Shown here: in pieces, positions 11,845 to 55,006 of the stretch | How the letters are laid out: each line of letters opens with the position of its first letter | Position numbering within the stretch: position 1 is the first letter of the stretch | Virus record (IMG/VR): IMGVR_UViG_3300014204_000183 | Span: 4,155-68,154 of that record | Origin: a virus | Taxonomy: Duplodnaviria > Caudoviricetes | Strand: one strand, 5' to 3' | DNA: 64,000 bases | Position numbers and translations under genes: made by a program | Notes under the pieces: generated by a model | What the model was told of the DNA's origin: nothing | Database searches by the model: none | Seen by the model: only the letters and a program-made list of their open reading frames with translations

Positions 11845-11847
11845 AAG

Positions 11848-11920
11848 CTGCCTCGCCAGGGCTCGAACCTGGGACAAGGTGATTAACAGTCACCTGCTCT
11901 ACCGACTGAGCTACGAGGCA
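11848..11920 (-). tRNA. tRNA-Asn(GTT)
   Basis: Cloverleaf TGCCTCG..GGTGA-CTGTTAA-TCACC..TTCGAGC..CGAGGCA-G; no encoded CCA. Confidence 0.92.
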
Positions 11921-15163: not shown

Positions 15164-15177
15164 AAACTTCTCCTTAG

Positions 15178-15250
<73 letters not shown>

Positions 15251-15319: not shown

Positions 15320-15733
15320 CTAATAGACAATAAAATAGGCAATGATTAAACCTACTAACACGCCAAATGCAAAGGTCAGGATTGTTGCCGTCTGCTCTTG
15401 CCCTCTGTCCCTCTCAACTTCCTGTTTCGATGGGTTAAGAAGCCCGCTGTTTGAGACAAACTTCTTTGTTTTGACAGGGCTGTTTGCAGGAGTGTTACCT
15501 AATGCCGCTAACCATTCATTGGGCACACTCGAAGCATCCACATTAATACCTAAGCAGTTAGGGGCATAGACACGGTCGGTAACCGAGCCAGGATCCCAAG
15601 CCACAGTCGGGCCGCGCCCGAAAACCAAAGAGCGGCCGACGGACGCGTTTTGAGCCCGAAGAACCACACCGCTATCGATTGCAACATATCCGTTCTCATT
15701 CTGATAATAGGTAATCATGCCAGTCCAGAGCAT
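15320..15733 (-). CDS. membrane-anchored hypothetical protein
   Basis: C-terminal TM ILTFAFGVLVGLIIAYFIVY. Confidence 0.65.
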   Translation of the reverse strand: MLWTGMITYYQNENGYVAIDSGVVLRAQNASVGRSLVFGRGPTVAWDPGSVTDRVYAPNCLGINVDASSVPNEWLAALGNTPANSPVKTKKFVSNSGLLNPSKQEVERDRGQEQTATILTFAFGVLVGLIIAYFIVY

Positions 15734-16092
15734 TTGACATTAATGCCCCAGGTAGTTCTAATCGCTTCAAGTGCGGCTTCTGTACCACTCACATTGATTG
15801 TTTTAATCAATCTGTCAACTATATAGGATCGGACGCTTGCCGTGAAAATCGATTTCTGGCATATTTCAGCCCCGGGGCCCCCCTTAAATTTAATCAACAC
15901 CTGTTCCATAGGCTGCTTGGCCCAGTCCGGTTCTCTACAAACAATACCTAAGCTGGTAATACCCTTGTGACCGACAAGAATGATACGATCCTTATAACCC
16001 AAATCTTCGGCCAAAAGATAGGCGTCGTCCAGTGTCTTTCCACTGGCCAGTGACTCGAAAACTGTTATAAGGTGCTTGGTTTCTGTCGCCAT
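15715..16092 (-). CDS. FxGGP-family protein (dispersed copy, leaderless)
   Basis: IKFKGGP...VRSYIVDRL; similar to 21576-21947 product. Confidence 0.7.
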   Translation of the reverse strand: MATETKHLITVFESLASGKTLDDAYLLAEDLGYKDRIILVGHKGITSLGIVCREPDWAKQPMEQVLIKFKGGPGAEICQKSIFTASVRSYIVDRLIKTINVSGTEAALEAIRTTWGINVKCSGLA

Positions 16093-16126
16093 ACTTGAAG
16101 TATAACACAATATTACTGGCTGTCAA
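16093..16126 (-). promoter_or_regulatory. sigma70-type promoter, leaderless
   Basis: TTGACA-N16-TATACT-N6-ATG(16092). Confidence 0.9.
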
Positions 16127-19333: not shown

Positions 19334-20020
19334 TTAATTAACCCCATTAAAATACAACTCCCGTGTCGAGAACCGTCGAAATCGCTGCAACCATTGCCGA
19401 ATCACTGCATCGTCCAAGTGAGTCGAGGCGCTCCAGCCAATCGGCAGGCTTATTAGCTCTTCGATAAACTCTGCCGTTGGAAGTCCACCTAGTTGCTCGG
19501 CAAGGCGTTGACAAACGACACTCAAGTTGTTCGTGACCGTCGTTTGTGGTGCCGGGGGCTGCCACTTCGGCACAGACAAAGATTCTAGTCCGTCTATAGT
19601 CAGCCCCCATATCACCCGCCCGCACTTTGAAAATGCTCGGGCTGTAGCCAAGAATTTCAAGCCCGTTGGCGAGATAATCCGCACTTGTGATTGCTTCTTT
19701 CTTAGCCGAATGTGAGAACTGCCAGAGGATATAGCTCGGCTCCACTGTTTGCACAAGTTGAATGAGTTTGTCTGTAAAATTTGTAGTGGGCTCCTTTGAA
19801 GTGGCTGTGGCTTCTGTGATTCCAGCGATGCAATCCACGCATCGACGCCAAGGTCTCCCGTCGAAGGTGTAGAAGTTGTCCCAGATAGGAGCCGCTTGTA
19901 GGGACTCCTCTCTGAATCGGTAATCAAGTATTTTAATGCTTCGGGGATTAGCTTCCACATAACATACCGGGGTCCAAAAATGAAGTTTTTGTAATGGGAG
20001 ATCGAAACTGCCGATGCCAC
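19334..20020 (-). CDS. overlapping alternative-frame polypeptide carrying C5-MTase motif IX-like segment (beta-type subunit)
   Basis: 228 open codons inside the MTase gene; GGLPTAEFIEELISLPIGWS...RQWLQ; true start uncertain. Confidence 0.55.
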   Translation of the reverse strand: MASAVSISHYKNFIFGPRYVMWKLIPEALKYLITDSERSPYKRLLSGTTSTPSTGDLGVDAWIASLESQKPQPLQRSPLQILQTNSFNLCKQWSRAISSGSSHIRLRKKQSQVRIISPTGLKFLATARAFSKCGRVIWGLTIDGLESLSVPKWQPPAPQTTVTNNLSVVCQRLAEQLGGLPTAEFIEELISLPIGWSASTHLDDAVIRQWLQRFRRFSTRELYFNGVN

Positions 20021-20048
20021 TATTAATTGATAAATATCTATACATCAA
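19347..20048 (-). CDS. DNA cytosine-C5 methyltransferase homologue, catalytic PC and ENV motifs absent
   Basis: SINSGIGSFD motif I, YVEAN, GADYRRTRIF, RLDSLG motif X; GITEA replaces GFPCQ. Confidence 0.75.
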   Translation of the reverse strand: MMYRYLSINSGIGSFDLPLQKLHFWTPVCYVEANPRSIKILDYRFREESLQAAPIWDNFYTFDGRPWRRCVDCIAGITEATATSKEPTTNFTDKLIQLVQTVEPSYILWQFSHSAKKEAITSADYLANGLEILGYSPSIFKVRAGDMGADYRRTRIFVCAEVAAPGTTNDGHEQLECRLSTPCRATRWTSNGRVYRRANKPADWLERLDSLGRCSDSAMVAAISTVLDTGVVF

Positions 20049-20209
20049 ACAAACTCGACCCCTTCTTGGGGTGGATTCGATTTGTAAAGTAGCTTCTGGT
20101 TGGTGATTTTCTGCAACCGTTTGTTTAATTTTTTCAACTTACGATCATTTCTATCTCGGTGATCGTTCTTGCAGTGATAGTCGGTGTCGTGTCTGAATGT
20201 TCGTCCCAT
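20045..20209 (-). CDS. basic hypothetical protein, 54 aa (not in ORF track)
   Basis: MGRTFRHDTD...GVEFV*. Confidence 0.5.
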   Translation of the reverse strand: MGRTFRHDTDYHCKNDHRDRNDRKLKKLNKRLQKITNQKLLYKSNPPQEGVEFV

Positions 20210-20551
20210 TTAAGAACTCTTAACTGCAACTTTCGTGCCATAGATGCGTTTGCGGCGTTCTTCAGTGGCATCATAGTGCATTACATAATCGAGAATCATT
20301 GTTAAAAGAGACCCCTTAATCCAGTTATACTGTCCAGGGGGTCCGCCACAGAATTGTATTGGTCCAATTGTGGCCGCGGGGATATCTTGTGGTATCTCGA
20401 AACAATATTTAAACGGTGTTGTGACCTTAGAGCCAGCGACACCATCTATAATAATCTGGTCTGCAAGAGCACCCATTTCCGATAGGATGTCAACAGCCTC
20501 GCTCGCTGTCAGATTCGCAAACTCGCGTTGGTATTCTTCTAATGATTTCAC
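20210..20551 (-). CDS. FxGGPP-family protein
   Basis: IQFCGGPPGQYNWIKGSLLTMILDYV. Confidence 0.8.
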   Translation of the reverse strand: MKSLEEYQREFANLTASEAVDILSEMGALADQIIIDGVAGSKVTTPFKYCFEIPQDIPAATIGPIQFCGGPPGQYNWIKGSLLTMILDYVMHYDATEERRKRIYGTKVAVKSS

Positions 20552-21195
20552 GGGTACGCCTTTAACGCCTTATGAACCTTGGGCAGATCATTTTTTACAT
20601 ACGCATAGAGAAAGTGATCGATTAACATTGTCAACAATGTTCCATCCCACCACTTAGGGGCTGGCGGGCCACCATAGAATTGAACCGGCACGTCACCGGC
20701 CAAATCATTAAAAAGACTCGTATCATCATACAGATCAACAAGTTGGAGGCGTTGACCACCGAATCCTATGTATGCCTTGTCAGCCCCGAAGGTCCAACAT
20801 AGTAATTCCAGTGCATCGAGTGTCGATATTTGACCAAATCGTTTGCGAAGCATACTAAAGTTAATTTGTTTCATATCCCCCTCTACCAAGTCTGTGTATG
20901 CACCTAGAATTGCCCAGTCATAGAGTATCACGTCACATAGGTATGTTAAAAGTGATCCCGTGTGCAGTCCTCGGTTATCAGGTGGACCGCCTATAAATTC
21001 AATAGGCCCCACTGCCGACGCTGCCACCCCTTCCATATAACTGGCACCTAAGAAAGTTTGTACTTCTCGCCTACTTTGAGTGTTTACAAAACAGATGCAA
21101 CTATGTCCAAGTCCAAATTCCTGGCAAAGTAGTTCAACTGCCTCGCTGGCACTTACCTCTTCAAGTTCGTTAAGGACATGCGTGTAAATCGCCAT
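20548..21195 (-). CDS. FxGGPP-family protein, two tandem domains (leaderless)
   Basis: FIGGPP..GSLLTYLCD and FYGGPP..GTLLTMLID. Confidence 0.8.
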   Translation of the reverse strand: MAIYTHVLNELEEVSASEAVELLCQEFGLGHSCICFVNTQSRREVQTFLGASYMEGVAASAVGPIEFIGGPPDNRGLHTGSLLTYLCDVILYDWAILGAYTDLVEGDMKQINFSMLRKRFGQISTLDALELLCWTFGADKAYIGFGGQRLQLVDLYDDTSLFNDLAGDVPVQFYGGPPAPKWWDGTLLTMLIDHFLYAYVKNDLPKVHKALKAYP

Positions 21196-21229
21196 ATCTT
21201 AAATATACCACGTTTTCCCTAATTGTCAA
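21196..21229 (-). promoter_or_regulatory. sigma70-type promoter, leaderless
   Basis: TTGACA-N16-TATATT-N6-ATG(21195); upstream stop TGA in -35. Confidence 0.9.
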
Positions 21230-21570
21230 CCGATCCAACCCATTGACAACCCATCTGGTAGTTGTTGTGGTAGTAGAAATTTATTTACTACGTCTAAATT
21301 GCCGTTATAATGGGCTGTAAGAATTCTATCGATTAGCATGGTTAATAGGGTTCCAGTGAATGTTGTGTATTTCATAGGTGGCCCACCATAAAATCGGCAC
21401 GGCACTGACTTTGCCTTGGCTAATCCGAAAGACGTGCTATGTAATTCCCATACTGCAAAAGGCGAGCTACCTTTATACGATGGGATATGTATTAGATCCT
21501 TGTGTGCATTTAATGCCTTCATACTTTGTACAAATTGTATCACCGTATGGTCAGCCAGCGCCGAGTACAA
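21226..21570 (-). CDS. FxGGPP-family protein
   Basis: CRFYGGPPMKYTTFTGTLLTMLIDRI. Confidence 0.8.
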   Translation of the reverse strand: MYSALADHTVIQFVQSMKALNAHKDLIHIPSYKGSSPFAVWELHSTSFGLAKAKSVPCRFYGGPPMKYTTFTGTLLTMLIDRILTAHYNGNLDVVNKFLLPQQLPDGLSMGWIG

Positions 21571-21575
21571 GATGT

Positions 21576-21947
21576 CTAGAATGGTGGTGCAGCTAGTTGT
21601 CGTTGTTGGTTCAATAATTGACGCACCTTTTCAAAGCCTTCCATCTGAATTTTAGCAGAAACACAGTCAACAATAAAGCTATACACGGTGCCATCATACC
21701 ATTTACCGCGTCCCACAGGGCCCCCATAGAAGCGAATACGCACACGATTAGCCGGTCTCCCAGTGGCTGTGCCCGCGTAAATCTGTCGGATATTTGTAAC
21801 GGCAATTGAATAGGCCTCGCCGCCTATCAAAAAGACATCCGTATCTTGATGCCCAAGTGCATAGGCAATTAGGTAAGCACAGTCGAGGTCAACAGGTGCA
21901 AAATGCCCCAGCAACGACTCGGCCTGTCTTAGATGATTCTTTTTCAT
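21576..21947 (-). CDS. FxGGP-family protein
   Basis: IRFYGGPVGRGKWYDGTVYSFIVDCV. Confidence 0.8.
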   Translation of the reverse strand: MKKNHLRQAESLLGHFAPVDLDCAYLIAYALGHQDTDVFLIGGEAYSIAVTNIRQIYAGTATGRPANRVRIRFYGGPVGRGKWYDGTVYSFIVDCVSAKIQMEGFEKVRQLLNQQRQLAAPPF

Positions 21948-22300
21948 ACGTTAAGACTCATAAACCGTCCAAGTACCGCTATATTTCCGAAGGACACGGC
22001 CTGCATAATTCGATCAACAAGCATAGTAAGAAGGCTGCCCTCATACCATTTTCGGTACCCAGGAGGTCCGCCCCAAAAGGTTATTGGTGCAAGGTCACTA
22101 GCTCTCAACATCTGAGCCCCTGGCAAGCTATTAATCAGTGCGACTGGGGTAGTGCAGAGCCCGTTCACCTCGATCTCTGTCAGACCTTCATCAAAGCTAT
22201 AGTTGAGGTAGTTCACAACCCGTGTTGCTGATAATTCTTTGAGTTTTTCTTTCAATTGATTACAAAGAATCTCGTCATTTGCCACCATTTTTATCACCAT
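21944..22300 (-). CDS. FxGGPP-family protein
   Basis: ITFWGGPPGYRKWYEGSLLTMLVDRI; start 22300 or 22288. Confidence 0.8.
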   Translation of the reverse strand: MVIKMVANDEILCNQLKEKLKELSATRVVNYLNYSFDEGLTEIEVNGLCTTPVALINSLPGAQMLRASDLAPITFWGGPPGYRKWYEGSLLTMLVDRIMQAVSFGNIAVLGRFMSLNV

Positions 22301-22641
22301 TGAAACCGCCTCTGGGACTTCTGGGGCGTCACAGCCATCAATTGATAAAGATCGCTCAGTGTATGGGAGCACAAGTACTCGTAGATTCTGTCCAGTACTA
22401 ATGTTACTAGGTTCCCTTCGTAGTATGCTAATCTGGTCGGTGGCCCTCCCCAAAACATGAAGTGAGGGGTCTCGACTGCTAGCAACCATTGCACATCTGT
22501 GTTCACCCAGTCTTTGACTCTTAATATCTGTTGATTTAAGTAGATTGTCGTGTCCGACTGGCCCAGAACCGCTAATAAGCTGTAGGCTGCTGGAGCACTC
22601 AATGTGTTTAGCAGCGCCAAAAGATCGTCTGGTATTCTCAT
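22294..22641 (-). CDS. FxGGPP-family protein
   Basis: FMFWGGPPTRLAYYEGNLVTLVLDRI. Confidence 0.8.
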   Translation of the reverse strand: MRIPDDLLALLNTLSAPAAYSLLAVLGQSDTTIYLNQQILRVKDWVNTDVQWLLAVETPHFMFWGGPPTRLAYYEGNLVTLVLDRIYEYLCSHTLSDLYQLMAVTPQKSQRRFQW

Positions 22642-22677
22642 ACATTATAAGTATACACTATTAAATACTACTGTCAA
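22642..22677 (-). promoter_or_regulatory. sigma70-type promoter, near-leaderless
   Basis: TTGACA-N16-TATACT-N8-ATG(22641). Confidence 0.85.
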
Positions 22678-23050
22678 GTCCTTGTAGTTCTTCAATCATT
22701 GTTACCCGTAATGAGTTCTGCTCGGGAGTAATTGGCCTCCACTCAGCAGAGGGGTCGTTTCGTAGTTTAAATAGATTACAGGATAGCCACCGATTACAGA
22801 ATGCGGCCAGATCGGTTGGCTGTACAGCTAATCCATCTGGCACCCATCGTTCAAGATTGACTAGCTCGCAGTGTCGTAAGAAACGTAGCTTATCCTCAGC
22901 AATCCACTTGCGATATTTCTCCTGGTCAGAGTTCTTTAGCACATCAGAAATAAGATCAACTAGGCGATGGGCTATTTCGCTTCTAGCTGGCTCTGCTACT
23001 AGGTCACGTAGCCCTTTGATGAAATCAACTAAGAGATTTAGGTTAAGCAT
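22661..23050 (-). CDS. hypothetical protein
   Basis: 129-aa ORF. Confidence 0.6.
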   Translation of the reverse strand: MLNLNLLVDFIKGLRDLVAEPARSEIAHRLVDLISDVLKNSDQEKYRKWIAEDKLRFLRHCELVNLERWVPDGLAVQPTDLAAFCNRWLSCNLFKLRNDPSAEWRPITPEQNSLRVTMIEELQGLDSSI

Positions 23051-23934
23051 GCGACATCTCCTGGGTATTTAATATGGGCCGACGGCTCTTGTGTCCAATT
23101 ATACTTCCTATAAATATTAGGATATTCGACATTGTTGCCGACGATTGTTAATAGAAATTGAATATCAGGCATGGTCCATTTTGATCGTGTAGGCAAGCCG
23201 CGGTCTCTACAAAATTCACGCCACCGACCATTGGATAGTGGCCCATTATGCAGTATTTTCATAGCCAACCGCCGCTCTTCTCGGAGCAAGAGATATTGCT
23301 GATGAGACTCTTGGATGATTGGTGAATACACCCAATCGGGCTTTGGAAAGACACCTGGGGTATAGAGTTCTCGTAGTACTTGTAACGAGGAGTCTGAGAT
23401 TCCACGATTCTTGCATTCAATAGCTACTGCAATTCCATAGCGAACTAACGACTGGATGTGCCCTCTCCACATCTCGACCGGTCTCGGTCGATAATTAGGA
23501 CTTGATTCAAAATACTTCAGCGTTCGCAAGATCCGGTTACGAGTGTGTTTTAAATCACAGTCTGTAAAACATTGTGCGCAAGCGCGGTAAGAACTGAATG
23601 GCATCCATACTAAATATTTAGGCTTTTGTCGCCGTGTAGGCGCGGGGTTCCAGTCAACCTCGGTGTACTCAATGGCGGCTGTGGGATTTGTCCAAACATT
23701 AGCTGCGATGCCATACGCCTGTCGCATATGCTGGCCAAACCGTTCATATTCGGCAGCACTTGCTTCCGCCTGTAATAACTGGGTCATTCGACTGTCAAGA
23801 GTAACGTAGTCTAGTTCATTTATATCTTCAAAAGTAATCTCCTTCCCAGTGCCACAGTCTATTAGTCGAACACCAACGCCACCAATGGCCCACTCACAGC
23901 GATATTGACGGATATCAAAATGTTCGTAAGCCAA
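23038..23934 (-). CDS. pyrimidine-dimer glycosylase/endonuclease V-like domain (MSMEG_6728 type) with N-terminal extension
   Basis: PVEMWRGHIQSLVRYGIAV..ECKNRG..PDWV..ESHQQYLL. Confidence 0.65.
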   Translation of the reverse strand: MAYEHFDIRQYRCEWAIGGVGVRLIDCGTGKEITFEDINELDYVTLDSRMTQLLQAEASAAEYERFGQHMRQAYGIAANVWTNPTAAIEYTEVDWNPAPTRRQKPKYLVWMPFSSYRACAQCFTDCDLKHTRNRILRTLKYFESSPNYRPRPVEMWRGHIQSLVRYGIAVAIECKNRGISDSSLQVLRELYTPGVFPKPDWVYSPIIQESHQQYLLLREERRLAMKILHNGPLSNGRWREFCRDRGLPTRSKWTMPDIQFLLTIVGNNVEYPNIYRKYNWTQEPSAHIKYPGDVACLT

Positions 23935-24892: not shown

Positions 24893-25471
24893 TTATACTG
24901 ATTGTGCCTGATATAGCCGTTTCCAATCGAAAAATCGCCAGCGGCCCATGGTATCAATCTCACTTGCATGGTCGATATGGCGTGTGTACGCGGCTAGATC
25001 ACTCCAAGTCTCAAAAATCATTTCTTGGGGGATGACTCCGCGGAGCCAGTCTGGTATTGCACGGAGGCCCTGCTCCATATGCAGCAGGATTGGCGCTTTA
25101 CGACGGTTTAGCACCGTCCACTCTTCATGGGTGCCAGTCGAATAGTATCGTAGATCTAAATGTACAATTGCGAAGTCACAAACGTCACACATTCTAAGGT
25201 CAATACAGCGAATCTCTCGCATCTGTTGTGCAAGAGTATCCCAGTCACCAGCTTCTTTTAGCTTCTGCCGGGCTATGTGATCCTCTAAATCTGGGCATTC
25301 ATACCCGGGTAGCATGGGTTTATGGCAGGGGTCGAGAAAGATTAGATTTAGGTCTTTTAGCTCTTCTTGAATACTGGTCCGCCAACCCGTTCCAAAATCT
25401 GGTGATAAATCGATTGGGCCCGCTAGATAAACGCGATTATAGAATAGACGGTTCATACAAACGTTCTCCAA
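24893..25471 (-). CDS. nucleoside 2-deoxyribosyltransferase-like / NMP N-glycosidase family protein
   Basis: VYLAGPID..GWR..FLDP..D..CD..STGTHEE. Confidence 0.75.
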   Translation of the reverse strand: MENVCMNRLFYNRVYLAGPIDLSPDFGTGWRTSIQEELKDLNLIFLDPCHKPMLPGYECPDLEDHIARQKLKEAGDWDTLAQQMREIRCIDLRMCDVCDFAIVHLDLRYYSTGTHEEWTVLNRRKAPILLHMEQGLRAIPDWLRGVIPQEMIFETWSDLAAYTRHIDHASEIDTMGRWRFFDWKRLYQAQSV

Positions 25472-50331: not shown

Positions 50332-50563
50332 CCTTTAGCCCCCAGCCAATGGTGTGCCAGATTTTTTCGTGCTGATAATAAAATAGAATCTTAATACCAA
50401 GACAGGCCAGGGCCAATTCGACACTTGTGCATAGATTGGATGTAAACGGATACGCGACGAGTGTAGTAAGAACTAATGATATAGTCTCCCAGCTTGTTGC
50501 TTTAACAATTAATCGTTTAGGTGTGTTAGGGTTGTGTTTCTTCGGCTTCATCAAGCACCTCAA
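50324..50563 (-). CDS. DUF2061-like membrane protein
   Basis: RLIVKATSWE..KILFYYQHEKIW..I.WG. Confidence 0.7.
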   Translation of the reverse strand: MRCLMKPKKHNPNTPKRLIVKATSWETISLVLTTLVAYPFTSNLCTSVELALACLGIKILFYYQHEKIWHTIGWGLKDG

Positions 50564-53519
50564 GATCTTGCTGGAAATCCCCCATAGACATTAACTCAAG
50601 ACGACGATTTGCCCGTAAAACTTCTAGCACTCTCTCATCTGATGGCAGATGGAGAAGATCAACAATCGTTACTGCAATATTCTCGTCAGCGCCCATTCTG
50701 TGAATCCTATCCTCACTTTGTGAACGAGATTCTGGGGAATAGTCATTGGAATAGTAGACAGCCATTCTGGATTCAACTAATGTTAGTGACATACCGCCAG
50801 ATTTCGGGTGAGCGACGAAACAGACCCGTGGATTCTTGTCAACGGCTGCCCAATAGTCTAGCGGGCCATCTGTAGTTGACTGCCCATTTGCTTTGTACAC
50901 AAGCCAGCCTCGACCATCAACTCGCACGACATCCCATCCATGCTTCAAACAGATCTTGGTCACTCGATCAATTGATCCAGTGAAGCCAGCGAACACTACC
51001 AATCGGCCAGTCTCTTCGTTCTCATCTAAAAGGTTGATTAAGGCTTCATCCTTGGGGCATGGCACTTCCTTAACCGTTCGCTCAACCTTATCAACTTCGC
51101 CAATTCCGTTGCAAGTTGCACATGGAAGTTGTGTCTCAATTAGAGTTTCAACATACTCTGGGTCCAGCATTTCAGTCATTGTAAACGCATGCTCTGAATC
51201 CTCTGGATCAATCCAATAGGTATTCGTTTTTGAACCCTTGCATACTGGGCATTGCTCCTTACCGTTTATCTTATCACGATACTGGAACCCGTCACTTAGT
51301 TCTCGGAGTCTAACGAGGCCGGTGATAGTGTTGGGGGCCGACTGTAATAATGATGCCGCTACGCGCACTGTAGCAGGAGATGGCTTGCAATATACTTGTC
51401 GGTATTGTTTATCCGGCAATTCAATGCAATCCTTTTTCTGTTTAATAATTACAAGGCCCTTGAGTCGCTCACTTAAATACGCAACCTCATTCTTAGATTG
51501 CTTGAAATCATGGATATCTGATTCAACACCTGTTAATGTTAAACCAATTAAATGCGTGTGGTTGCCTTCATCTTCAAGTTCTCCACATAGATCGCACTTC
51601 TTCTCGTTATCACGCCAATCGACAAGTTGCCAGAAGGCATTTCCAATAGCCCCTTCTTCTTTTCGATGGATACCTAGTCTAAACTTAAAGGACTCAGCAT
51701 CCCCTTCTCGCAGGAATCCGGGCCACACAATCTCACACGGAGCCCACCAATCAACTGGTGACTTTGGAGAGGGGGTACCAGACATGCCGATAACAAAGCC
51801 TTCCATGCCCCAGTCACGTCGTATGCCGTCTGCAAGAGCCTGAGCTGCTTGTGTACGTTGAGTCTTGGCTGTCTTTGCACGGCTAATTTCGTCAAAGACA
51901 ACGCCCATAGGAGCAGGGTCGCCAGACTTCCACATACTCATATGTTTAACTAGACCCTCGTAGGTCATCAGTTCAATCTCAAGATTCGAGTTGACTTCCC
52001 ACCGCTTGAACTCACGCTCAACTGCGTATAAGCCCGATTTGGGACCAACCCACCACCACTTCTTCTTACCAGACTTTTCCATCACTTCGATGGCGGAAAG
52101 TGTGTTGTGCGTTACGATGTAATCATCAGTAACATAAAGTTGATTTTTATCCGCGACTGAGATACAGATACATTCGTCCTCACCTATGGGTTCCACATTT
52201 ATTATCGCCCGAGTTGGCTGATACTTAGTCGGCACTACATAGGCATTTAGTTTTCTTGTAAGTCTAAAGGGAGTAATGGTATCAGGGAAGGAAGCATAGA
52301 TTTGATAGGCGAGCCGACCGATGCGCATCTCGCCCTTATATGAGTATGTTGGATAACATGTATGCACGTGGCAAGTTCCACCAAGCGATTGTACAAGACC
52401 GACGAAGGCGTCACACAATTGTTTTGATGTTGTTGAGTATTCGACACCAGTATCAGCCGCATACCCATCAGAGTCACAAAGACCTTGTAATAGTGCCAGT
52501 CGCTGTTCAATAGAACTATACAAGTACTCTTCAGGAATGTGCTTCTCCCAGGATCTGCGACCTTTTAACTTGGACGTTTTTATCCAGCCATTTATCGTCT
52601 TGTCTTTTACGTGGTAATCAATATTATTCGAGAACTGTAAATCCTCAGACATTGCTGCATTTAATCGCGCGACTGTTTCCATATCGGGCACAGATATTTT
52701 ATTTGTCCAATCACTCAAGGATCCGTTTCCAAGTATATATCCAACAACATATGGATCGACTGGTAATTCCTTGGTAGAATAAACTACAGGTTTTACCATC
52801 GGAATATAGTATTTAGCATTGCCATTTTTTAACCTTAGACCACTCTTGATGATCTCATTTAATTCTAGTGTCTTATATCCTTGTCCTCGGTGTTTTTGGC
52901 AGGCTGACCTAACGTTCCATAGATGGTCCCCACTACAGACAACTGTAGCCCCATCAGAAAACGTGACCCTAAACATCTCCATTTTACCCCGGGGGAATAC
53001 ACCTGTAACATAGGTGGTGCCGCCATCTGGATTGATTATGGTGTCGCCAATCTTGATCTCACCAAGTGTAGTCCAGCCATCGGGGGTGGCGACTTTTGTG
53101 CTCGGTAGTCCGCCTTTTCCAAGCCCCATCTCTGCCCCAAAGATTTGATAATGGTATGTTAAGCCTGCATCCGTCATATCTTTTTGGTGGGGCCGAAGAG
53201 GTCGTTGATACGCAAAATGTTGGATTGGCCTATCGAACCATTCATAGGCATCGATGCCCATCATGACTTGTAACTGGAATAAATTCCGTCCGCAATTTTC
53301 CACCGACCAGATTTTACGTGGGGGGTCATCAAAGCCGTGCCATCGGGCATTCTTCATCGCTTTGATTTCGTCTTTAAGCGAGAAGGGCGACTTTAGAAAT
53401 TCAATCCGAGCCTCAGTGGCTTGAATTGTAGCCGGAGTTTTTATCCGGGTGCCAGAGGCGGTGGTTGTAATTAATTTGATCCCGGTAGGTGTATTAAGAG
53501 GCAGGTTCATTAGTTCCAT
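50526..53519 (-). CDS. SNF2-like SF2 helicase containing an intein
   Basis: EMGLGK|T Walker A split by intein; FDEIS, SGTP, QSEDRIHRMG. Confidence 0.88.
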   Translation of the reverse strand: MELMNLPLNTPTGIKLITTTASGTRIKTPATIQATEARIEFLKSPFSLKDEIKAMKNARWHGFDDPPRKIWSVENCGRNLFQLQVMMGIDAYEWFDRPIQHFAYQRPLRPHQKDMTDAGLTYHYQIFGAEMGLGKGGLPSTKVATPDGWTTLGEIKIGDTIINPDGGTTYVTGVFPRGKMEMFRVTFSDGATVVCSGDHLWNVRSACQKHRGQGYKTLELNEIIKSGLRLKNGNAKYYIPMVKPVVYSTKELPVDPYVVGYILGNGSLSDWTNKISVPDMETVARLNAAMSEDLQFSNNIDYHVKDKTINGWIKTSKLKGRRSWEKHIPEEYLYSSIEQRLALLQGLCDSDGYAADTGVEYSTTSKQLCDAFVGLVQSLGGTCHVHTCYPTYSYKGEMRIGRLAYQIYASFPDTITPFRLTRKLNAYVVPTKYQPTRAIINVEPIGEDECICISVADKNQLYVTDDYIVTHNTLSAIEVMEKSGKKKWWWVGPKSGLYAVEREFKRWEVNSNLEIELMTYEGLVKHMSMWKSGDPAPMGVVFDEISRAKTAKTQRTQAAQALADGIRRDWGMEGFVIGMSGTPSPKSPVDWWAPCEIVWPGFLREGDAESFKFRLGIHRKEEGAIGNAFWQLVDWRDNEKKCDLCGELEDEGNHTHLIGLTLTGVESDIHDFKQSKNEVAYLSERLKGLVIIKQKKDCIELPDKQYRQVYCKPSPATVRVAASLLQSAPNTITGLVRLRELSDGFQYRDKINGKEQCPVCKGSKTNTYWIDPEDSEHAFTMTEMLDPEYVETLIETQLPCATCNGIGEVDKVERTVKEVPCPKDEALINLLDENEETGRLVVFAGFTGSIDRVTKICLKHGWDVVRVDGRGWLVYKANGQSTTDGPLDYWAAVDKNPRVCFVAHPKSGGMSLTLVESRMAVYYSNDYSPESRSQSEDRIHRMGADENIAVTIVDLLHLPSDERVLEVLRANRRLELMSMGDFQQDLEVLDEAEETQP
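52104..53114 (-). mobile_element. intein (337 aa) with LAGLIDADG homing endonuclease, class 3 signature
   Basis: Gly1 start, DHLW block B, ECICISV block F, VTHN|T end; VVGYILGNG and LLQGLCDSDG. Confidence 0.88.
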
Positions 53520-54904: not shown

Positions 54905-54919
54905 ATATGTCTCCTTAAA

Positions 54920-54993
54920 TGGCGGGGGCAGGACTCGAACCTGCGACCTCGAAGTTATGAGCCTCGAAAGCTAACCAACTGCTCCACCCCGCT
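54920..54993 (-). tRNA. tRNA-Met(CAT), initiator-like body
   Basis: AGCGGGG TG GAGC AGTTGGTT AGCT..CGAGG-CTCATAA-CTTCG..CCCCGCC-A; 1:72 mismatch. Confidence 0.88.
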
Positions 54994-55006
54994 ATGCCCC
55001 GAAGGG

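Follow-up and report, generated by a model that had tools for sequence, protein, structure and literature searches.

Locus and gene content

The stretch analysed here (hereafter the window, 64,000 nucleotides) comprises bases 4155–68154 of a 68-kb IMG/VR virus record, IMGVR_UViG_3300014204_000183 (Duplodnaviria; Caudoviricetes), with a CheckV completeness of 51%. The record codes for a family-A DNA polymerase, a ligase, glycosyltransferases and three tRNAs. No close relative of this virus was present among 50,697 GenBank phage records, and its DNA polymerase reaches only ~25% identity, at best, to those of cultured phages. We followed up a first-pass annotation, made from the letters alone, which had drawn attention to a tandem array of paralogous genes of a family referred to here as FxGGPP. 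The family occupies seven minus-strand genes with eight domains of ~110 amino acids (aa), which share the motif F-x-GGPP...G-[ST]-L-L-T-x-L-x-D, and all seven open reading frames (ORFs) were present in the ORF list at the positions originally given. An eighth ORF had not been remarked upon: a 233-aa frame that spans all of gene 1 in another frame and continues into gene 2. The coding features are as follows, where HMM stands for hidden Markov model and P2 is a promoter described below.

22294–22641, minus strand: gene 1, a 115-aa FxGGPP domain (HMM E 1.8e-37) with its own orthologous subfamily
21944–22645, minus strand: long ORF, 233 aa, an N-terminal tail of ~120 aa followed by the gene-2 domain
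21944–22300, minus strand: gene 2, short form, 118 aa, its ATG overlapping the gene-1 stop (ATGGTGA)
21576–21947, minus strand: gene 3, 123 aa, its start overlapping the gene-2 stop (ATGA); orthologs found
21226–21570, minus strand: gene 4, 114 aa, with a TTG start and a TGA stop that lies within the -35 box of P2
20548–21195, minus strand: gene 5, 215 aa, a two-domain fusion of 5a (~20869–21195) and 5b (~20548–20868)
20210–20551, minus strand: gene 6, 113 aa, its GTG start overlapping the gene-5 stop (GTGA); modelled with AlphaFold2
15715–16092, minus strand: dispersed eighth copy, 125 aa, more divergent, with GGPG replacing GGPP

The eight domains could be aligned over their full length (~117 profile positions), with the F, the GGP and the D invariant, while the other copies are 17–30% identical to the first. 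An HMM built from these domains and searched against the 68-kb record returned exactly those eight places (E 1e-28 to 6e-39), which is far beyond chance, so that the proposal of eight domains with a single architecture is borne out. The isoelectric points (pI) of the family proteins are mixed, ranging from 4.3 to 9.2. For the dispersed copy, orthologs were identified (P0049 and P0133), and the related contig L001 carries a copy at the equivalent place. For comparison, we retrieved 16 contigs; a related-locus search with a single family protein as query had yielded two viral contigs. Those related contigs that could be traced came from landfill metagenomes (PMC12607003).

A second open frame across gene 1

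Many database homologs of gene 2 are 200–260 aa long and have an N-terminal extension bearing motifs such as LGRS and NLRLF. Such motifs arise when the FWGGPP...G-x-L-x-T-L-x-D stretch of a gene-1 homolog is read in the other frame. In the window, ~115 aa of the long-ORF tail overlap gene 1 in this way, and over the related loci the long form measures 218–261 aa, with the internal Met at which short gene 2 starts being kept in most long-form homologs. Starting just ahead of the gene-1 start codon, the gene-2 frame in nine loci contains no stop until gene 2 itself ends. Two further contigs, in which the short gene 2 had been called, were fetched as an attempt at refutation; the frame was open there too (11/11 loci), which argues that the region is dual-coding.

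Several lines of evidence indicate that this openness is specific to the frame. Pooled over eight loci, the long frame contains 0 stops in 821 codons across gene 1, compared with 69 in gene 1's other alternative frame and 37–78 in the same relative frame of each of the six paralogous domains. When gene 1 was shuffled among synonymous codons, the open frame had P 0.004–0.04 per locus (Fisher combined P 6e-10). In addition, an ATG for the long frame lies 4–19 nt upstream of the gene-1 ATG in 9/9 loci examined, and L015 and L016 show the same pattern. Judged by its reading frames, gene 1 is dual-coding: the second frame is stop-free over its whole length and runs into gene 2. The evidence is unusually clean, as it comes from eleven diverged loci and the paralogs serve as frame-specific internal controls.

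A -1 programmed frameshift joining gene 1 to gene 2 was considered and rejected. The slippery heptamer X XXY YYZ, looked for in the gene-1 frame near its 3' end, is absent in 6/9 loci and does not occur at a conserved position, so such a frameshift is not the explanation; it would also work without an open frame reaching back to the gene-1 start.

Gene callers disagree at the gene 1/gene 2 locus. At nine of the eleven loci they reported the long ORF and left out the real gene 1, and the family is therefore under-counted in databases. A similar partial overlap was seen elsewhere in a distant relative (L011:7834–8609), at the fourth and fifth domains of its array, where a 202-aa ORF lies over ~73 codons of the preceding domain in another frame; that preceding domain was missed by the gene caller.

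Promoters and operon layout

Three promoters stand ahead of family members, each with 11/12 matches to the sigma-70 consensus TTGACA-N16-TATAAT.

22650–22677, minus strand: promoter P1, TTGACA-N16-TATACT, 11/12 match; its -10 box ends 8 nt before the gene-1 ATG and 4 nt before the long-frame ATG
21202–21229, minus strand: promoter P2, TTGACA-N16-TATATT, 11/12 match; the gene-5 ATG lies 6 nt past the -10 box (leaderless type)
16099–16126, minus strand: promoter P3, TTGACA-N16-TATACT, 11/12 match; the ATG of the dispersed copy lies 6 nt past the -10 box

The first-pass annotation had placed three members directly behind consensus promoters, two of them of leaderless type with a 6-nt gap, and this was confirmed (genes starting at 21195 and 16092, with an 8-nt gap for the third at 22641). 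P1 was found at the same place in L001, L002, L003, L005, L009, L010, L015 and L016, and P2 is kept before the gene-5a ortholog in L001, L003, L004, L005 and L007, with a gap of 5–6 nt. L001 likewise has a promoter ahead of its dispersed copy. The array comprises two tightly packed units, genes 1–4 and genes 5a-5b-6, and each unit follows a conserved sigma-70-type promoter whose -10 box ends 5–9 nt ahead of the first ATG. The sequence features expected of leaderless-type starts are thus present, namely a -10 box 5–9 nt from the start codon, no Shine-Dalgarno sequence and a conserved position. For gene 1, no Shine-Dalgarno sequence was visible upstream, and it is probably translated from a leaderless mRNA. 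Within the units, junctions in the window are ATGGTGA, ATGA and GTGA overlaps, and those of relatives are overlaps of 1–26 nt or gaps of 1–2 nt. The promoters ahead of the paralog set are of host type, and the region appears to be an early one.

In most loci, the long-frame ATG is positioned 1–4 nt past the -10 box or inside the promoter, and the gene-1 ATG 6–9 nt past it.

A 129-aa protein (window 22661–23050, minus strand; 124–134 aa in relatives) always precedes the array. It has no family match, the TAA stop of its gene falls in the P1 spacer, and it may belong functionally with the array. In L004 and L007, the 129-aa gene and the array are separated by an inserted small Cys-rich ORF (L004:2970–3160 and L007:595–786; 63 aa in L007), which has a leaderless-type promoter of its own. 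In the same two contigs, the long gene-2 frame is open 85–97 nt further upstream, so that gene 1 is fully nested inside it.

Distribution and age of the array

A profile search of 1.84 billion cluster representatives returned 312 proteins at E<=1e-3, 102 of them at E<=1e-10. When 150 listed representatives were classified against the eight window paralogs, each paralog proved to have its own orthologous group, usually by a wide margin. Every related contig of sufficient length has the same seven array domains in an unchanged order, and a relative of 79% completeness has 7+1 copies including the dispersed eighth, as in the window's record. Two more distant contigs have arrays of 7 and 6 domains, for which orthology to the window paralogs is blurred. 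The family numbers hundreds of proteins, invariably encoded in arrays of six to eight paralogs.

Identity between orthologs is broadly similar over the seven domains (e.g. 55–74% between the window and L001). Gene-wide, the ratio of nonsynonymous to synonymous differences per site (pN/pS) of orthologs was 0.16–0.87, mostly 0.2–0.5, with pS saturated at 0.6–0.9. With most ratios at 0.2–0.5 and synonymous sites saturated, purifying selection dominates. A check of dN/dS had been proposed, and these gene-wide ratios did not reveal diversifying selection. Because each paralog forms its own subfamily, the array is constant, 7+1 copies recur in the relative and selection is purifying, the duplications are old and the copy number is fixed.

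The earlier description of the array as a gene accordion is therefore not supported. Its copies are only 17–30% identical to the first rather than near-identical, and their number and order are constant in relatives, with orthologs for each paralog. The locus is an old, fixed, co-retained 7+1 paralog set under purifying selection, the opposite of a gene accordion.

One junction differs between the window and its relatives. Every relative examined encodes domains 5a and 5b as two genes in two different frames; in the window they are fused, and an in-frame ATG at 20872–20874 in gene 5 matches the 5b start of the relatives. This fusion is a hint that the two domains function next to each other, while an assembly error is also possible.

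Family and fold searches

No named family had been recognised for these proteins, and searches of curated libraries gave the same answer. Pfam, queried with the 7 window proteins and all 103 members of the alignment, returned nothing below E 0.008. For the window proteins, there was no significant match in PHROGs (best E 0.059), there were zero matches in PADLOC (a library of defence-system proteins) and NCBIfam gave sub-threshold chance matches only. A sequence-profile search of the PDB returned noise (E 0.17), and the ESM Atlas held no usable match to the family. At the nucleotide level, tblastn against the 50,697 GenBank phages and blastn of the region both gave zero matches, as did a scan of gene 2 against 185,579 species genomes. 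None of the 150 listed representatives is fused to an enzyme or known domain; a search for longer proteins also found no such fusion, which is weak evidence.

An AlphaFold2 model of the gene-6 protein, built on the 103-sequence alignment, was predicted with high confidence (pLDDT 93, pTM 0.82). The chain runs through two helices, two strands, a short helix, a strand, the GGPP turn, another strand and a long helix, in that order. Nearly invariant positions (F67, G69, G70, P71, G80 and D88 in gene-6 numbering) map to the second hairpin and to the beginning of the final helix. The long form of gene 2 was modelled as well, on an independent alignment of 17 ortholog sequences, and its residues 123–233 show the same topology (pLDDT ~90). 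As two models from different alignments agree, a common predicted alpha/beta fold is confirmed, and the domains share more than the short GGP turn, which was the outcome that structure prediction with Foldseek had been proposed to check. The annotated architecture stands as regards the conserved C-terminal scaffold and the divergent N-terminal halves. It needs correction at the GGPP, which the predicted topology places at the turn of a beta-hairpin rather than simply in a loop joining helices. The tail of the long form is predicted to be disordered (pLDDT ~40 at residues 1–122), with the domain after it folded.

Searching with the gene-6 model, Foldseek gave a best E of 0.4 against the PDB and 0.088 against BFVD, and VIA-align against 48,161 chains gave a best Z of 4.2, with none >=5. 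The absence of a structural match does not prove a new fold. What can be said is that the family is undescribed and that no match to its predicted fold was found among solved or predicted viral structures. FxGGPP is thus a well-defined piece of phage "dark matter" and a good target for structure determination and for the discovery of complexes or targets.

Possible function of the paralog set

Tentatively, we favour a reading in which the array encodes proteins that are co-expressed early and work together, either as a hetero-oligomer or as adaptors sharing one conserved patch; we regard this as quite possible without calling it probable. Under this reading, host RNA polymerase would transcribe the array early, as leaderless mRNAs and in roughly fixed proportions. 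The products would then act jointly, as subunits of a hetero-oligomer or as adaptors with differing N-terminal halves and a common patch, which would consist of the GGPP hairpin turn together with the Thr and Asp on the following helix. Joint action is suggested by the co-retention of the paralogs, their fixed order, their translational coupling and the 5a-5b fusion.

The two frames over gene 1 could be accommodated as follows. A promoter-proximal leaderless transcript would give gene 1 and then, by stop/start coupling, short gene 2. Transcripts reading through from upstream would carry the upstream ATG and give long gene 2 with its ~120-aa disordered tail. The full combination, in which the 7+1 paralogs form a hetero-oligomeric early-infection machine of unseen fold and transcript choice at a leaderless promoter switches the frames, seems unlikely to us. 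If true, the make-up of a complex would be controlled in a new way, by switching between gene 1 plus short gene 2 on the one hand and long gene 2 on the other. If the frames are chosen by the transcript start, this would be a simple and testable case of promoter-dependent frame selection.

Several points weigh against the joint-action, two-transcript reading. The constant gene order and joint retention are also compatible with seven independent essential functions. Apart from its openness, the tail is not conserved any further than the gene-1 frame demands, and as synonymous sites are saturated, an extra constraint in gene 1 is undetectable. Finally, because the long-frame ATG in most loci lies upstream of the expected transcription start, it cannot be on the leaderless transcript there and needs read-through transcription.

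The best-surviving alternative, which we consider somewhat unlikely, keeps the host-interaction role suggested in the first-pass annotation (anti-defence or host takeover). The proteins would then be expressed early and act independently, each binding its own host target through the variable N-terminal half, with the conserved C-terminal part as no more than a scaffold. Such a role would suit small proteins encoded behind strong host-type promoters in a promoter-rich region, as well as the divergent N-terminal halves around a conserved core and the lack of an enzyme-like motif or a known fold. However, arms-race sets usually vary, and here copy number, order and orthology are fixed over relatives of 25–80% identity. 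The dominance of purifying selection and the lack of a PADLOC match also count against it, and the close coupling of translation, like the 5a-5b fusion, points to joint rather than independent action.

Alternatively, the proteins could be accessory factors of phage DNA metabolism or modification, for example specificity or assembly subunits for neighbouring enzymes. The neighbourhood is what speaks for this, as conserved neighbours include Pyr_excise-like and nucleoside deoxyribosyltransferase-like genes, Dam and C5-type methyltransferases, DeoC, ThyX, ribonucleotide reductase and IMPDH. Residence in a phage early region is weak evidence, however, and neither the listed representatives nor the longer-protein search provided a fusion to an enzyme domain. 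The mixed pI and the lack of a nucleic-acid-binding signature point away from it as well, and we consider it distinctly unlikely.

It is similarly improbable that the long frame over gene 1 has no functional product, its openness being a by-product or a means of letting ribosomes from the upstream ATG reach gene 2. The predicted disorder of the tail, its lack of conservation of its own and, in most loci, the placement of the upstream ATG ahead of the expected transcription start would all agree with this view. Set against it are the stop counts (0 in 821 codons versus 69 in the other frame and 37–78 in the paralogs), openness in all 11 loci including the two in which the short form was called, and a conserved start codon in that frame. 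A frame-specific lack of stops needs ribosomes that read the frame.

The mixed pI argues against a DNA-mimic or otherwise uniformly charged role, which was rejected on this ground.

Comparison with known systems

Embedded or overprinted phage genes are exemplified by Rz/Rz1 of lambda and by B within A and E within D of phiX174. As in these, a gene here lies wholly inside another in a different frame, and both frames are open across relatives. The array differs in that its overprinting frame extends the following paralog at the N-terminus, as a disordered tail with no conservation of its own, and in that the two start codons lie 4–19 nt apart at a leaderless-type promoter; given this spacing, transcript choice may determine which frame is read. 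The array has no sequence relationship to the lambda or phiX174 genes.

Paralog sets that form hetero-oligomers include the seven Lsm/Sm proteins and the alpha and beta subunits of the proteasome. By analogy only, these too are fixed numbers of old, small-fold paralogs that are co-retained and evolve at broadly similar rates. The phage set has no fold or sequence relationship to them, and any assembly that it forms is hypothetical.

Host-takeover modules, such as that of Bacillus phage SPO1, consist of small early genes behind strong host-type promoters. The resemblance to the SPO1 module lies in the many small genes of unknown fold, the consensus sigma-70-type promoters and the location at one genome end, presumably expressed first; the seven or eight genes considered here, in contrast, are paralogs of one family in a fixed order. 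Neither the 50,697 GenBank phage records nor BFVD contained anything similar to the family in sequence or fold.

Gene accordions are recent, near-identical copies of variable number. Amplification of poxvirus K3L, like the clusters of anti-CRISPR genes that arise in arms races, resembles the array in having related or small viral genes in tandem. Here, by contrast, the copies are 17–30% identical to the first, each has orthologs and the number is constant.

Neighbouring genes and other observations

Upstream of the array, window 23038–23934 (minus strand) has a weak Pfam match, at threshold, to the pyrimidine-dimer DNA glycosylase family (E 1e-4), and window 24893–25471 (minus strand) matches the Pfam nucleoside 2-deoxyribosyltransferase family below threshold (E 0.003). 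Both genes are conserved beside the array in relatives.

Further from the array, the window contains tRNA genes at 11847–11920, 15177–15250 and 54919–54994, all on the minus strand (one Asn-GTT and two Met-CAT); one of the Met-CAT genes sits between the dispersed FxGGPP copy and an exonuclease-like gene. A 997-aa ORF with a LAGLIDADG homing-endonuclease domain was found at 50526–53519 (minus strand), and ThyX and ribonucleotide reductase of relatives carry inteins.

Gene 6 is followed by a very basic 54-aa ORF (window 20045–20209, minus strand) with no family match, and a gene of 54–56 aa stands at the same place in L004, L007 and L015. Directly downstream of the array (window 19334–20048, minus strand), two overlapping ORFs of ~230 aa cover a C5-methyltransferase-like gene, making this a second dual-frame locus. 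Two long frames overlap equivalently in L001, L004, L007 and L009, and the product in some relatives matches Pfam DNA_methylase.

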